From assembly GCF_006345805.1 (NCBI RefSeq), contig NC_043002.1, positions 8,556,001 through 8,620,000 of the forward strand: 64,000 nucleotides of DNA, given 5' to 3'. Source of the DNA: Octopus sinensis (taxonomy: Eukaryota). Within the stretch, counting starts at the first letter, position 1, and every line of letters begins with the position of its first letter. Positions 1-51,851 of the stretch are shown here, piece by piece. The translations under genes were made by a program, and so were the position numbers. The notes beneath the pieces are model-generated. The model was not told the DNA's origin. It saw only the letters and a list, made by a program, of their open reading frames with translations, and made no database searches.

Positions 1-1050
1 TGTGATAAGCTAGCATGTCTGTACACTGGTTCTTCAGAGATAAGGTGAGTATGTATGAAAGTTCTAGGTGAGGAAACTCACAGTTTATAAGGAATAGAAT
101 AGTAAATAGAAGAATAAAGAGTAAAACAGTAGATGGAAGAATACGGACAGGAAAATAAAGTACACAGCTCATCTTCTTCAAGAGGGTATGGAGCTTGGTC
201 CATACTTTCATGAAGGTATTGGCCCTTAAGTATAATTCCAGGTGAGTCCAGGCAGCATTTTGGCAGTATTTTGTAGCATCACTACAGACAGATATGGATA
301 GTGAGTGAGTGAATAGAAGAGAAAGGAGGAACAGTGAAAAGACAGGGGTGGGGAAAGAATGAATGAGAGCGAAAGTAAAATAAAATTTTAAAAATCAGAA
401 TCAAAAATATAAAATAAAGATAAAGATATAGGCGCAGGAGTGGCTGTGTGGTAAGTAGCTTGTTTACCAACCACATGGTTCCAGGTTCAGTCCTACCGCG
501 TGGCACCTTGGGCAAGTGTCTTCTACTATAGCCTCGGGCCGACCAAAGCCTTGTGAGTGGATTTGGTAGACGGAAACTGAAAGAAGCCCGTCGTATATAT
601 GTATATATATATATGTGTGTGTGTCTGTGTTTGTCCCCCTAGCATTGCTTGACAATCGATGCTGGTGTGTTTATGTCCCCGTCACTTAGCGGTTCGGCAA
701 AAAGAGACCAATAGAATAAGTACTGGGCTTACAAAGAATAAGTCCCGGGGTCGAGTTGCTCGATTAGAAGGCAGTGCTCTAGCATGGCCACATACATATG
801 ACTGAAACAAGTAAAAGAGAGTAAAGAGAGTATAAGATGCCAGTAATATTCTTCATAAGGATCAGTTTGGGGTGAGAGCTCAGGTATTAAGGTCTTGGTA
901 AGGTGGAGGAGGAAGACATTTATGTCTATTAATTAAATAGATAAATTCCAGGTGCAGTGTGGTCAGACTAGGTATTGGAAAGCAAATGATACTTTAACAA
1001 TGAAGGTGGATTGCCATAGCACTGTGACTGGTTTGCCATTGGACCTTTCA
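1..1050 (-). mobile_element. Highly decayed LINE (CR1/Jockey-like) RT-region relic, interrupted by a SINE
   Basis: Non-microsatellite sequence on both sides of the SINE at 431-831; the minus strand only loosely recalls post-RT LINE sequence and has many stops. Confidence 0.25.
431..831 (+). mobile_element. tRNA-derived SINE family A, full length
   Basis: A-box-like TGGCTGTGTGGTAAG and B-box-like GGTTCAGTCC, CORE-like CCTTGGGCAAGTG, central (TA)/(TG) tract, 3' GTAAAAGA repeats; many copies in the window. Confidence 0.9.
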
Positions 1051-2588: not shown

Positions 2589-3424
2589 CAAACAAGGACA
2601 GACAAACAGATTAAGTTGATTACATCGACCCCAGTGCATAACTGGTACTTAATTTATTGACCCTGAAAGGATGAAAGGCAAAGTCTACCTCAGCGGAATT
2701 TGAACTCAGAACGTAACAGCAGATAAAATACAGCTACGCATTTCGCCCGGCATGCTAACATTTCTGCCAGCTCACCGCCGTGTATATATATCCATATATA
2801 TAATTATTACACATGTATATATATGTATATATATATATACGGCAAAAAGAAAATGCAGGGAATATAGAAATGACATATATCAACTGTTAGACAGTCTTTG
2901 CATATGTATATATTCTTACAAATGTTTTAGAATAAATAAATAGCCAGCCTCTCCTGGCACCTGTGCCGGTGGCATGTAAAAGGCACCCACTACACTCATG
3001 GAGTGGTTAGTGTTAGGAAGGGCATCCAGCTGTAGAAACACTGCCAGATCAGAATGTCAGATCATGTGACAGTACCAATGCTGGAGCACCATCTTTGGTC
3101 GAACAATTGACCACAGGATTCATCTTTGTAAGCTTAGTACTTATTCTATCGGTCTCTTTTGCTAAACCACTAAGTTATGGGAATGTGAACACAGCAACAT
3201 CATTTGTCAAACAATGGTGAGGGTACAAACACAGAGACACACCCACAAATATACACATATATACGACAGTCTTCTTTCAGTTTCTGTGTACAAAATACAC
3301 TCTCAAGGCTTTGGTTGGCCAGTGGCTATAATATATATATAATATATATAATATATATATATATATCCATATCCATATACATATATATATCCATACACAC
3401 ACACACACACATACACATATATAC

Positions 3425-3651
3425 ACCAGAGTAAGCACATAAATGTAAAACAAGGTGGAAAAATAGTACTCAAATACCAGAGGTAGAGTAATATGCTTTA
3501 TTTAAAAGCAGCAGAAATGTAGCAAAAGCTGTTACTCAGAGTTTCATGTTCCCATTTGTCGAACAGTTTTAACAAAATTGTCCAACGAACGGGAACATGA
3601 AACTCTGAGTAACATCTTTTGTTATATTTCTGCTGCTTTTAAATAAAGCAT
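3425..3651. mobile_element. Fold-back element in (TA)n with hammerhead-like folds in both arms (Penelope/retrozyme-like)
   Basis: Inverted arms 3493-3570 and 3574-3651; a related fragment lies at 58735-58822; tandem copy at about 5347-5574. Confidence 0.7.
3529..3566 (-). ncRNA. Minimal type-I hammerhead-like fold, variant core UCGACAA
   Basis: Minus strand reads CUGU-UCGACAA-AUG GGAA CAU-GAAA-CUCUGAG-UA^ACAG; stems I, II and III all pair. Copy at 5452-5489. Confidence 0.65.
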
Positions 3652-3766
3652 GCATATATATATATAAAATTATTTGAGGGAATATTAATCCTAACTTATA
3701 GGGAAAAATTCAATTTAGAAATACTAAATCAAATTTCACACAATATAATATATATATATATATAAA

Positions 3767-3991
3767 AATTAGAAAAAACCCACCTTTTATCAATTCAAAA
3801 TGAACATTTAAATTACACCATCTAGAAAATTACATATAATAGAATGTTTTTATTATTTTTTATTATTTTTTTTGCAATTTACTAATCATCAGTATATTAT
3901 TGTTATTTTAATATTTCTATTATATGTAATTTTCTAGATGGTGTAATTTAATTGTTCATTTTGAATTGATAAAAGGTGTTTTTTTCTAATT
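3767..3991. repeat. Fold-back element in (TA)n with a decayed hammerhead-like spacer
   Basis: Inverted arms about 3767-3845 and 3915-3991; CTGATGA on the minus strand at 3886-3892; tandem copy at about 5692-5919. Confidence 0.65.
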
Positions 3992-4228
3992 ATATATATA
4001 TATATTATATATTATATATATATGCATATATAAAATCAAAATAACTAACAGGATATCAAAAAGCGATGCTTGTAAGCTATGACACCAGTAAGCTTTGTGC
4101 ATTTCTTGGGAATGTCTATTCTTAGCTACAAAAACACAACATGGATTTCTTTCATCTTTGTTGCTCTGTGAAAGTATTTTACTAAAATGTATTGATGCGT
4201 CCAACTGATTAAATTCTATTTATATTTG

Positions 4229-4314
4229 TGCAGCTGATGACAGCCTTGCATTTAAATTGACGTAATGATTGCATTGTCCAATTAAATGGAGCCACTTGAA
4301 ACGGTCGTACTGCA
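4229..4314 (+). ncRNA. Type-I hammerhead-like fold with canonical core
   Basis: UGCAG-CUGAUGA-long imperfect stem II-GAAA-CGGUCG-UA^CUGCA; stem I is 5 bp and stem III ACGGUCGU is near self-complementary. Confidence 0.75.
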
Positions 4315-5241
4315 TCACCTCTGGATATCCTGTTTCTTACTTTGATTTTATTCACCTTACTTCGAGGTGTGTGGACAATACCGGATTAACTTCGTGCTTC
4401 AACTTAAGTACCTAATTCAACTGAATCTCAGTTATTTCTTATATCCATATATATATATATTTTTTTTTTACTACCCATAAGGGGCCAAACACAGAGGGGA
4501 CAAACAAGGACAGACAAACAGATTAAGTTGATTACATCGACCCCAGTGCATAACTGGTACTTAATTTATTGACCCTGAAAGGATGAAAGGCAAAGTCTAC
4601 CTCAGCGGAATTTGAACTCAGAACGTAACAGCAGATAAAATACAGCTACGCATTTCGCCCGGCATGCTAACATTTCTGCCAGCTCACCGCCGTGTATATA
4701 TATCCATATATATATAATTATTACACATGTATATATATGTATATATATATATACGGCAAAAAGAAAATGCAGGGAATATAGAAATGACATATATCAACTG
4801 TTAGACAGTCTTTGCATATGTATATATTCTTACAAATGTTTTAGAATAAATAAATAGCCAGCCTCTCCTGGCACCTGTGCCGGTGGCATGTAAAAGGCAC
4901 CCACTACACTCATGGAGTGGTTAGTGTTAGGAAGGGCATCCAGCTGTAGAAACACTGCCAGATCAGAATGTCAGATCATGTGACAGTACCAATGCTGGAG
5001 CACCATCTTTGGTCGAACAAATTGACCACAGGATTCAGTCTTTGTAAGCTTAGTACTTATTCTATCGGTCTCTTTTGCTAAACCACTAAGTTATGGGAAT
5101 GTGAACACAGCAACATCATTTGTCAAACAATGGTGAGGGTACAAACACAGAGACACACACACAAATATACACATATATACGACAGTCTTCTTTCAGTTTC
5201 TGTGTACAAAATACACTCTCAAGGCTTTGGTTGGCCAGTGG

Positions 5242-5284
<43 letters not shown>

Positions 5285-6151
5285 ATATCTATATCCATAT
5301 ACATATATATATCCATACACACACACACACACATACACATATATACACCAGAGTAAGCACATAAATGTAAAACAAGGTGGAAAAAATAGTACTCAAATAC
5401 CAGAGGTAGAGTAATATGCTTTATTTAAAAGCAGCAGAAATGTAGCAAAAGCTGTTACTCAGAGTTTCATGTTCCCATTTGTCGAACAGTTTTAACAAAA
5501 TTGTCCAACGAACGGGAACATGAAACTCTGAGTAACATCTTTTGTTATATTTCTGCTGCTTTTAAATAAAGCATGCATATATATATATATAAAATTATTT
5601 GAGGGAATATTAATCCTAACTTATAGGGAAAAATTCAATTTAGAAATACTAAATCAAATTTCACACAATATAATATATATATATATATAAAAATTAGAAA
5701 AAACCCACCTTTTATCAATTCAAAATGAACATTTAAATTACACCATCTAGAAAATTACATATAATAGAATGTTTTTATTATTTTTTATTATTTTTTTTGC
5801 AATTTACTTAATCATCAGTATATTATTGTTATTTTAATATTTCTATTATATGTAATTTTCTAGATGGTGTAATTTAATTGTTCATTTTGAATTGATAAAA
5901 GGTGTTTTTTTTCTAATTTATATATATATATATATATATATATATGCATATATAAAATCAAAATAACTAACAGGATATCAAAAAGCGATGCTTGTAAGCT
6001 ATGACACCAGTAAGCTTTGTGCATTTCTTGGGAATGTCTATTCTTAGCTACAAAAGCAACAACATGGATTTCTTTCATCTTTGTTGCTCTGTGAAAGTAT
6101 TTTACTAAAATGTATTGATGCGTCCAACTGATTAAATTCTATTTATATTTG

Positions 6152-6237
6152 TGCAGCTGATGACAGCCTTGCATTTAAATTGACGTAATGATTGCATTGT
6201 CCAATTAAATGGAGCCACTTGAAACGGTCGTACTGCA
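6152..6237 (+). ncRNA. Hammerhead-like fold, tandem copy of 4229-4314
   Basis: Same sequence in the second duplication unit. Confidence 0.75.
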
Positions 6238-6780
6238 TCACCTCTGGATATCCTGTTTCTTACTTTGATTTTATTCACCTTACTTCGAGGTGTGTGGACA
6301 ATACCGGATTAACTTCGTGCTTCAACTTAAGTACCTAATTCAACTGAATCTCAGTTATTTCTTATATCCATATATATATATATTTTTTTTTTTACTACCC
6401 ATAAGGGGCCAAACACAGAGGGGACAAACAAGGACAGACAAACAGATTAAGTTGATTACATCGACCCCAGTGCATAACTGGTACTTAATTTATTGACCCT
6501 GAAAGGATGAAAGGCAAAGTCTACCTCAGCGGAATTTGAACTCAGAACGTAACAGCAGATAAAATACAGCTACGCATTTCGCCCGGCATGCTAACATTTC
6601 TGCCAGCTCACCGCCGTGTATATATATCCATATATATAATTATTACACATGTATATATATGTATATATATATATATACGGCAAAAAGAAAATGCAGGGAA
6701 TATAGAAATGACATATATCAACTGTTAGACAGTCTTTGCATATGTATATATTCTTACAAATGTTTTAGAATAAATAAATA

Positions 6781-37427: not shown

Positions 37428-38718
37428 CGAGGGGCGTTCAATAAGTAATGCCCCTGACCCACTTCCCATAGCAGTAGAGCAACGAAACTTGGCACAGTTA
37501 TTAGTCTTTTTCTACGTAGGAACCACCCAGAGTTACGCATTTCTCCCATCGTTTGATGCAGCTCTGAAGACCGTTTTTGTAGAAGACCCCAGCTTGGTCC
37601 TCCAACCACAACGTGACTTCAGAAATCAAGGCTGCATCATCTGGGAAACGCTTTCCTTTCAAAAACAACTTCATGGCTGGGAAGAGGTGAAAATCAGAGG
37701 GTGCAGGTCAGGAGAGTAGGGAGAATGGGGGATGAGCTCATAGCCGCACGCCTGTGCTTCTGATCTGGCGACACACGAGTTGTGGATCGGAGCGTTGTCC
37801 TGCAGGAGGAGGATGCCTTTGCTGATCTTGCCCCGCCTCTTGATTTTGATAGCTTCTCTTAATTTCCTCAAAAGTGAAGCATAATAGACTCCTGTAATTG
37901 TGGCACCCTTTGCCAAGAAATCTGTCATCACTACTCCGTCCTGGTCCCAGAAGACTGTGAGCATGACCTTGCCAGCGGAGGGCTGCACCCTTGCCTTCTT
38001 TGGAGGAGGTGAGTCACGGTGCTTCCACTGCATTGACTGGGCTTTGGTCTCTGGATCATAGTGATGGACCCAGGTTTCATCCTGTGTAATCAGACTTTTG
38101 AAAAATTTTGACTCATCTTCTTGGCACATCTTCAAATTCATCCTCGCGCAATCGACGCGTTCTTGCTTCTGGAAAGGTGTGAGCAGCCTGGGAATCCATC
38201 TGGCAGACACCTTTTGCATATGCAAATGGTCATGAATGATAGTTTCCACAGACCCGGTACTAATCTTGACCTCATGGGCTATTTGGCGAATAGTTATGCG
38301 TCAATCTTCCAAAATGGCAGCCTCAACTTGACGGACAGATGCCTCATCAATGACAGAAGGGAGCGACCAGATCTGGGAGCTGTTTCCACAAAGTTCCGAC
38401 CATGTTTGAATTCACGATGCCAGCGTTTTACAAGGTCATATGATGGGGCATCATCACCATAAGTTACTTTTATTTCATCAAAAGTCTCCCATGGTGTGCG
38501 TCCTTTCAAATACAAAAACCGCATCACTGCTCGACACTCAACAGGCTCCGTTTCACACTTGACTCAGTTCAAACACCTGTAAATCAGAAACCACAATTAG
38601 TTCAGAGCTGTAATTTGCCACTTAATCTATAGAGATATAAATAATTGCACATGCAAAATTTCAGCTAGATCAAACAACTGCAAGTGGGTCAGAGGCATTA
38701 CTTATTGAACGCCCCTCG
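37428..38718 (-). mobile_element. Full-length mariner transposon, about 1.29 kb
   Basis: TA TSD on both sides; TIR CGAGGGGCGTTCAATAAGTAATGCC(C/T)CTGACCC at both ends. Confidence 0.96.
37501..38551 (-). pseudogene. Mariner DD34D transposase pseudogene
   Basis: ARWIPRLL, ITQDETWVHHY, KVMLTVFWD, LLQDNA and PYSPDL motifs; split over ORFs 38294-38527 and 37671-38249 by frameshifts; probable start codon mutated to ACG. Confidence 0.93.
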
Positions 38719-43705: not shown

Positions 43706-44030
43706 TGTTGTTGTATTTAGGAATGGTCATTTTGCCAGTTTAACCAATAAAAACATATGTACTATATATTTGGTGTTACTTTGCTTCAGCTTTATTTATT
43801 TTTTACATTTATCTTAATATTGTTCGGTAAAGGACCACTGATGAGGTCACAGAAGTGTGACGAAAGAACTCTGGCCGAAATAAGATTAAGATTAATGTAA
43901 AAAATAAATAAAGCTGAAGCAAATTAACACCAAATATATAGTACATATGTTTTTATTGGTTAAACTGGCAAAATGACCATTCCTAAATACAACAACATCT
44001 GTTTCAACACACGATTTCACATCAAGAATC
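43706..44030 (+). mobile_element. Fold-back element with a hammerhead in the loop
   Basis: About 120-bp inverted arms at 43706-43827 and 43875-43997. Confidence 0.8.
43832..43876 (+). ncRNA. Minimal type-I hammerhead-like fold
   Basis: GGACCA-CUGAUGA-G-GUCACA GAAG UGUGAC-GAAA-GAAC-UC^UGGCC. Confidence 0.72.
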
Positions 44031-44309
44031 TTGCAAAACAAATATATAAACGTGACAAAGTGATGTTGATTACAAATCTATTTTATAGAAAGATATTAAT
44101 CCCATCAAATCACAGGGATTGGCAAAATCATACAGTATCTTACATCACTGGTAAATGACATAGATGAGGGAGCAATGTGTTCCTGTACAAGGCATTATTT
44201 TATCACAAGAAGATTTAAATCCAGGATAGTAACGCTTATGAATGATATGGTGCCCAGCTGCTTGCAGTAGTGAATTATATCAGCCTATGGTACTTATTTA
44301 TATAATTTC

Positions 44310-51266: not shown

Positions 51267-51312
<46 letters not shown>

Positions 51313-51390
51313 TAAGGGTAGAAATTGATATTTATCAATTAAGACCAGTGGTCTAGCATATTAAAAAAGAATCCGAAGATTAAAATATTT

Positions 51391-51802
51391 ATATATACCA
51401 ATTAAGGACTGAACACGAAAAGTGGACAGTCAACATGCTAGATATAGACGTCAAATCGCCATTCACCACAAAAGATTATGTTCTCAGATCAAACTCAACA
51501 CAAAACCATAGCAATAAACAAGTGAAAAATATACGAAATAAAATAATTACCCATGTACTAAATTAGTTTCAGCTGTTATTTTCCGCAAGGAAAACTGCAG
51601 CCATCATCAACATGGTCCGTTATAAATGTAATTTGCTGGACTAGATGCATGGGTAATTATTTTATTTCGTATATTTTTCACTTGTTTATTGCTATGGTTT
51701 TGTGTTGAGTTTGATCTGAGAACATAATCTTTTGTGGTGAATGGCGATTTGACGTCTATATCTAGCATGTTGACTGTCCACTTTTCGTGTTCAGTCCTTA
51801 AT

Positions 51803-51810
<8 letters not shown>
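51391..51810 (-). mobile_element. Fold-back element in (TA)n with near-perfect arms of about 160 bp and a hammerhead in the spacer
   Basis: Arms at 51391-51555 and 51648-51810. Confidence 0.88.
51551..51615 (-). ncRNA. Type-I hammerhead-like fold
   Basis: Minus strand reads CCAUG-UUGAUGA-U GGCUG..UUUUCC UUGC GGAAAA..CAGCU-GAAA-CUAAUUUAG-UA^CAUGG. Confidence 0.75.

Positions 51811-51851
<41 letters not shown>

Follow-up and report, generated by a model that had tools for sequence, protein, structure and literature searches.

The analysed window is a 64,000-nt stretch of the Octopus sinensis genome (NC_043002.1, positions 8556001-8620000), and the genome-wide searches covered the 2.72-Gb assembly. 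At 51300-51812, the window harbors a head-to-head insertion of a 506-nt repeat family between a left (51269-51304) and a right (51805-51849) (TA)n target tract. We numbered the monomer from the predicted hammerhead cut, with +1 as the base immediately 3' of it. The inverted arms, 51401-51555 and 51648-51802, comprise 155 nt each and are 100% complementary. By comparison with the family, the left arm (51300-51649, minus strand) runs from monomer position 411/413 through the hammerhead and past site A to site B (~+260) in (TA)n, and it extends beyond the duplicated portion as far as ~51300. The right arm (51648-51812, plus strand) runs from +1 (or +2/+3) to site A (~+165) and then into (TA)n. 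The 'tail' from site A to site B, about 95 nt long (51300-51400, minus strand), is present in a single arm only. A single substitution, C3U in the hammerhead core, separates the left arm from a natural tandem copy, and no reading frame of at least 150 aa overlaps the insertion.

The original prediction placed the start of the duplicated arm exactly at the cut, equated this arm of about 160 bp with the 3' cleavage product, and described the sequence before it as unrelated. The right arm can indeed start at 51648, which is +1 and the first base of the predicted 3' cleavage product, and the 155-nt arms are perfect. However, the family sequence of the left arm continues across 51648-51649, and both bases are compatible with either arm; because of this 2-nt microhomology at the head-to-head junction, the right-arm start may be +1, +2, or +3. 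The bases preceding 51648 are not unrelated, as they form the 5' end of the left arm (monomer 411-413).

The minus strand at 51551-51615 folds into a predicted type I hammerhead with stems I-III (fold z -2.9), and the predicted cut lies between 51556 and 51555. The predicted order on this strand is the 5' strand of stem I (51615-51611), the core (51610-51604), GAAA, a short stem III, and GUA, and the extended stem I spans 51543-51623. This assignment is a prediction from the consensus core, the fold, and covariation; the Rfam hammerhead search gave no match at the gathering score nor at E<=5. In 12 hand-picked variants, 96.6% of the cells were paired, and two-sided changes occurred in 5 of 25 pairs, located in stems II and III and in distal stem I, in keeping with a structure preserved by selection. 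The covariation was equally high in 2 of 500 shuffles, a value that is not a probability, as the sequences are related. Core position 3 was C in 329 of 331 hammerhead readings across the compared loci, with overlapping loci counted repeatedly. The remaining two readings, with U3 at 51610, are the window copy read twice, and U3 is thus private to it. This C3U change presumably weakens cleavage. For comparison, C3G abolishes hammerhead activity (PMC11167929, available text).

The stem III loops are self-complementary in several subfamilies, which suggests from the sequence that cleavage may occur as a dimer. Dimer activity is described for short-stem III ribozymes in the available part of PMC7229834, and the short stem III of the 506-nt family resembles that of the amphibian ribozymes working as dimers. 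One copy of an older subfamily (L117:1100-1110) has another self-complementary stem III and another 3' strand of stem I, with a fold-back inside stem III.

Genome-wide, the copies derive from tandem monomers of 506 nt, of which as many as 14 whole units occur in a single stretch. An anchor near the monomer 3' end gave 1,263 genomic matches, and in 373 monomers the sequence continues across an intact cut site. The short tandem monomers each carry a predicted type I hammerhead, and the family is a young 506-nt tandem element of the animal non-LTR retrozyme class. In the text available to us of two studies (PMC7229834; 10.64898/2026.07.22.740005), animal non-LTR retrozymes are low-GC, non-coding tandem repeats in which each monomer, typically ~300 nt long, carries a type I hammerhead. 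The present family shares the low-GC tandem organization and the predicted type I hammerhead per monomer and may likewise be non-coding, whereas its monomer has 506 nt and its copies are mostly dispersed, 5'-truncated head-to-head pairs. The array at C1:190068000-190076600 (L067/L101) contains at least 14 whole monomers of two interleaved sequence types, with variants common to 8-10 of 14 units. Monomers inside one array carry common fixed variants, a pattern that fits rolling-circle copying and equally a homogeneous source array. None of the sequencing runs containing the family is recorded as RNA. A run guessed to be RNA yielded one 480-nt contig that spans the monomer in permuted order with even depth, and contigs of this kind look alike for circle and tandem and for RNA and DNA.

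We then compared the 115 distinct loci with known coordinates, which comprised 93 head-to-head pairs and 22 single arms or fragments. From 92 complete pairs, 85 were A+B, two A+A, one B+B, and four had another end; against independent ends, the A+B pairing has P~1e-22. Site A corresponds to +158..178 and site B to +254..270, and both adjoin short TA runs. The flanks of 45 young pairs were nearly all (TA)n. The window copy follows this layout, as its left arm reaches site B at ~51300 and its right arm site A at ~51805. The inner junctions differ between loci and mostly consist of 1-10 nt overlaps or short fillers.

The perfect 155-nt inverted arms could also recall a MITE or another TIR DNA transposon, or an assembly fold-back artefact. 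We consider this very improbable, because the ends are unequal (A versus B), the inner junctions vary by locus, the arms continue into tandem arrays with as many as 14 whole monomers, and the autonomous family B (below), related in layout, encodes a reverse transcriptase (RT) and a GIY-YIG nuclease. The A+B asymmetry refutes a TIR transposon, which has equal terminal repeats and a fixed interior.

The two arms of a locus resemble each other more than they resemble other loci, with 0.8% divergence within a locus (100 of 12,826 positions) versus 2.0% between loci. Marker 91T>A was present in both arms of 20 pairs, in one arm of none, and in neither arm of 67, against 30.8 one-arm pairs expected. 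Similarly, marker 58T>C was found in both arms of 14 pairs, in one arm of a single pair, and in neither arm of 57 (23.2 one-arm pairs expected). At a CpG-decay site, the arms of the same locus did not agree. The marker agreement is what two cDNAs from the same RNA would give, and it could also reflect source copies that succeeded one another, or gene conversion at a later time.

The starts of paired arms were examined in 87 pairs that had not been picked through junction searches. They lay at most 10 nt apart in 21 of the 87 pairs, versus 5.0 after shuffling. These coincident starts were confined to short copies (18 of 35, versus 5.9), and pairs with an arm longer than 275 nt showed 3 in 52 versus 2.1.

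For the arm-start profile around the predicted cut, we searched exact 34-mers from a given position preceded by a non-family base, and each match was assigned to junctions or to point changes. At any position, a junction is missed by this search if its next base happens to be that of the family. Position +1 gave five matches and three junction arms: the window locus, L034, which has a 1-nt insertion and a partner arm at +8, and L035, where the junction formed via the five bases of stem I. Microhomology blurs the start in two of these three junctions. The remaining positions tested near the cut gave one match without junctions (-1), no match (-15), four matches with two junctions (+4), three matches with two junctions (+6), and four matches with three junctions (+21). 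Compared with the control mean, the three arms at +1 have P=0.17. Exact +1 is not enriched in the 506-nt family, and the window locus alone is weak evidence.

In contrast, arm starts at +7/+8 are a hot spot. Position +7 gave 26 matches and 22 junction arms from 18 loci, counted by eye, and +8 gave nine matches and eight junction arms with mostly distant partners. At 14 of the 18 +7 loci, the partner arm starts at +6..+10, and only six of these loci are perfect fold-backs. The peak falls immediately beyond the 5-bp stem I (+1..+5), within the covarying extension of this stem to +13. A position-unbiased sample, consisting of the first 100 of 454 matches, of which 85 were counted in 58 arms with one long array partly counted, resulted in eight starts at +1..+12 versus 2.0 expected, although paired arms are included and the events are not independent. 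The same sample contained one start at +1..+3 (0.5 expected) and one at -20..-1 (3.2 expected). The original prediction of arm boundaries tied to the NUH site across genomic copies thus holds in that the boundaries are non-random, with an excess at +7/+8; the exact +1 start, however, is at control level. Likewise, the proposed retrotransposition and the link of arm starts to the ribozyme are supported, but arm starts exactly at the cut are not supported in the 506-nt family.

Two explanations of this peak involve the ribozyme directly. In one, the right arm was copied up to the self-cleaved 5' end of the RNA, and run-off with bases trimmed on joining produced the +6..+8 peak. We hold this tentatively. 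The +1 starts of the window right arm and of L034 with its partner at +8, the lack of junction arms at -1 and -15 together with the deficit at -20..-1, and the joint stop of both arms at 14 of the 18 +7 loci, which is expected of a physical RNA end, argue for it. Nevertheless, only three arms start at +1, the left arm of the window locus crossed an intact site, and +1/+1 fold-backs are absent from the whole assembly (no C among the five +1 matches), although two run-off ends would offer a terminal 4-nt palindrome. In the alternative, the hammerhead folds without being cleaved and the RT halts on reaching the 3' foot of stem I (+6/+7), so that the peak reflects structure and not catalysis. This is a serious possibility, though short of even. 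It agrees with the position of the peak just beyond the 5-bp stem I and within the covarying extension, with three arms ending at +6 with fillers, and with the missing +1/+1 fold-backs. However, a stall of ~5% per pass would seldom stop both arms, as is seen at 14 of the 18 loci.

A third explanation is that microhomology and palindromes alone set the junctions, with the ribozyme as a bystander. Most junctions do carry 1-10 nt overlaps or short fillers, fold-backs occur at other palindromes (93/93, 104/104, and 448/448), and a pile-up occurs without a ribozyme: in older subfamilies, 24 of 70 arm starts on contig C1 fall within +51..+70, a region without ribozyme, which shows that pile-ups can arise from other causes. 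However, the palindromic hexamer of +7 is also present at +294, where two matches, one junction arm, and no fold-back were found in a pool estimated at ~250; this control used a shorter common core, as an earlier pattern with a rare variant gave no matches in a pool of 12. The palindrome at +104 gave 16 matches, eight junction arms, and one fold-back in a pool of about 1,260. Both controls weaken this explanation. Moreover, 12 of the 18 +7 loci are not perfect fold-backs, and the eight arms at +8 mostly have distant partners. We therefore consider it unlikely.

Two further origins of the +7 fold-backs were rejected. Snap-back of a single cDNA is excluded because the +7 fold-backs have A+B ends. 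A propagated palindromic subfamily is unlikely, as the +7 loci have no private variants in common within +1..+158 and their fillers differ. Separately, the C1 loci L107-L143 of an older subfamily are short palindromes with both arms starting at about +51..+75.

At the window locus, the right arm is probably an ordinary microhomology junction, and run-off from a cleaved RNA end is the less probable origin. The three arms at +1 compare with a background of 1.4-2.3, and hence a cleavage origin of the +1 start at this locus is possible but doubtful.

A second family in the window, family B, gave an additional comparison. Its copy at 43706-44050 is a short head-to-head pair of an autonomous Penelope-like element, with a minimal hammerhead, a predicted cut after 43871, and one A and one B end. 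Family B has frames for RT and GIY-YIG, with a CX4CXXC motif preceding the nuclease; its Pfam hits are weak and below the cut-off, and it shows similarity to a 781-aa Penelope-like element (PLE) protein. From the motif, as described in the available text of PMC8557442, family B appears to be Neptune-type. The long family B pairs that were fetched were A+B in 12 of 12 cases.

The arm-start patterns for family B were restricted to purine-preceded starts. At +1, 38 matches were found, and 20 of the 30 examined were junctions, or 17 once duplicated loci were collapsed. At +11, nine of 30 were scored as junctions (32 matches), and seven remained after by-eye removal of a deletion and a point change. 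At -13, 13 matches included three scored junctions, one of them clear. Exact +1 is over-used about 2.5-fold relative to +11 (P~0.01), a modest excess that speaks for cleaved templates in part of the family B insertions. For the 506-nt family, the excess favors run-off, as stem I of family B is too weak to stall the RT, and it is left unexplained by stalling; against run-off, three of the family B +1 junctions have one microhomology in common. Several family B data sets were set aside. The +6 control was swamped by CpG decay (174 matches; 8 of 30 examined were junctions) and was excluded from the test. The +1 search with all non-C preceding bases gave 702 matches, mostly of the U17 allele. The BLAST-ranked samples of families B and C were biased to the query layout and were excluded from the enrichment. 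Genome-wide, family B carries C17 and U17 alleles at the cleavage nucleotide, and U17 predominates in the long ORF-bearing copies.

The insertion anatomy of the 506-nt family points to a Penelope-like mover. In the accessible text of PMC8557442, insertions of EN+ Penelope-like elements often have an inverted, 5'-truncated copy adjoining the 5' end, a tail that is restricted to one side, tandem copies, and a (TA)n bias. The 506-nt family shows this signature, with an inverted 5'-truncated copy, a one-end tail, tandem copies, and a (TA)n microsatellite target. Unlike the elements in that text, however, it appears to have no ORF, its tail is ~95 nt versus 30-40, and 85 of 92 pairs follow the layout, making it near-obligate where the text says 'often'. 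Lacking an RT with a C-terminal GIY-YIG ORF, the family is not an autonomous EN+ Penelope-like element. We searched for a donor among 80 loci (50 from the GIY-YIG search, in which 150 of 5029 candidates were scored, and 30 from family B), and no autonomous element with DNA common to the 506-nt family was found among them. One old copy of the 506-nt family lies 2 kb from a PLE frame. The genome contains intact 781-aa RT + GIY-YIG frames in several near-identical copies, and these proteins are donor-enzyme candidates only. Six loci (L308-L312 and L317; C1:207473500 and others) represent a young PLE family in which the 781-aa frame is preceded by a 479-aa frame and the 3' region is repetitive; a simple scan of L308 itself detected no hammerhead.

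The layout also resembles that of the Poseidon PAc enzyme in vitro, for which the available part of PMC11167929 describes RT initiation at two internal sites that flank the tail, with both strands nicked and extended. The layout of the 506-nt family agrees with such a two-start-site, two-strand arrangement, but PAc starts at a site non-homologous to the target, whereas sites A and B abut target-matching TA runs. In the same text, uncleaved RNA is the main PAc substrate, cleavage by the ribozyme is not required, and no reads start at the cut, which stands against run-off; the 506-nt family, in contrast, has a genomic excess just 3' of the cut.

The proposed two-strand priming has a further parallel in LINE-1 twin priming, in which cDNAs from both target strands are joined via microhomology and generate a 5' inversion. 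In LINE-1, the location of the second priming site varies and the two cDNAs cover separate parts of the template, whereas here both arms are copies of one and the same sequence and sites A and B do not vary.

Taken with the A+B layout, a borrowed Penelope-like RT/endonuclease that primes both strands of (TA)n, with the ribozyme ending copying in a minority of insertions, is the account that we consider probable. The PLE enzyme would nick both strands of the (TA)n target, and each free 3' end would prime a cDNA at internal RNA site A or B. Both cDNAs would be copied from the same RNA, which may be a concatemer or a circle because most long arms read through the cut. For the same reason, the RNA copied in most cases would be uncleaved, religated, or circular. 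The cDNA 3' ends would then be joined via microhomology-type repair or short templated fillers. In the minority, a cleaved 5' end or a stem I block would end both cDNAs immediately 3' of the cut, and the two would anneal through the palindromic hexamer at +7. A ribozyme footprint in a minority of insertions is likely. We are more reserved about a stronger version, in which a dimeric Penelope enzyme writes every insertion from two fixed RNA sites and the hammerhead-cleaved 5' end terminates both cDNAs in vivo; it is conceivable, on the weaker side of even.

The retrozyme class itself is already known, whereas the insertion anatomy and the arm-start profile are apparently undescribed in the text searched. 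In the searchable retrozyme text, the word 'inverted' occurs zero times in PMC7229834 and once in 10.64898/2026.07.22.740005, and 'tail' zero times in the latter. Within a limited literature coverage, we found no publication that relates arm starts to the cut or reports this layout for a retrozyme. The available text of PMC8557442 calls the role of the hammerhead in Penelope-like elements 'still unclear', and the 506-nt family offers a countable junction profile around a ribozyme, in which most copying reads through the cut site. PLEs are proposed as the mobilizers of animal retrozymes in the available text of PMC7229834, where they are only a proposal, and the PLE signature is borne by 85 of 92 pairs here. 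If the stronger version is true, the family would provide direct genomic proof of animal retrozymes riding Penelope machinery, and the +7/+8 peak and the family B +1 excess would preserve, as a fossil record in the germline, the cleavage by the ribozyme in the course of retrotransposition.

The original prediction also extended the arm-boundary pattern to three other cuts in the window, with mixed results. At 4309, the partner arm begins at +3, close to the cut. At 43871, the arm starts at about +4 by eye but at +14 by BLAST. At 3842, the arm lies at about -5 by eye, and the core lacks the G of GAAA, which makes a cut there doubtful. The 3842 and 4309 hammerhead-type families are each present twice in a local duplication of ~1 kb (3330-4420 and 5250-6340). 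The predicted type I hammerhead at 4234-4320 has an unusually long stem II insert (~60 nt) and belongs to an older family with 3391 first-look candidates, some of them in ~730-nt tandems (L256/L257). Additionally, a fragment of a Mariner-type transposase is located at 37671-38300 on the minus strand (Pfam Transposase_1, E 3e-25).
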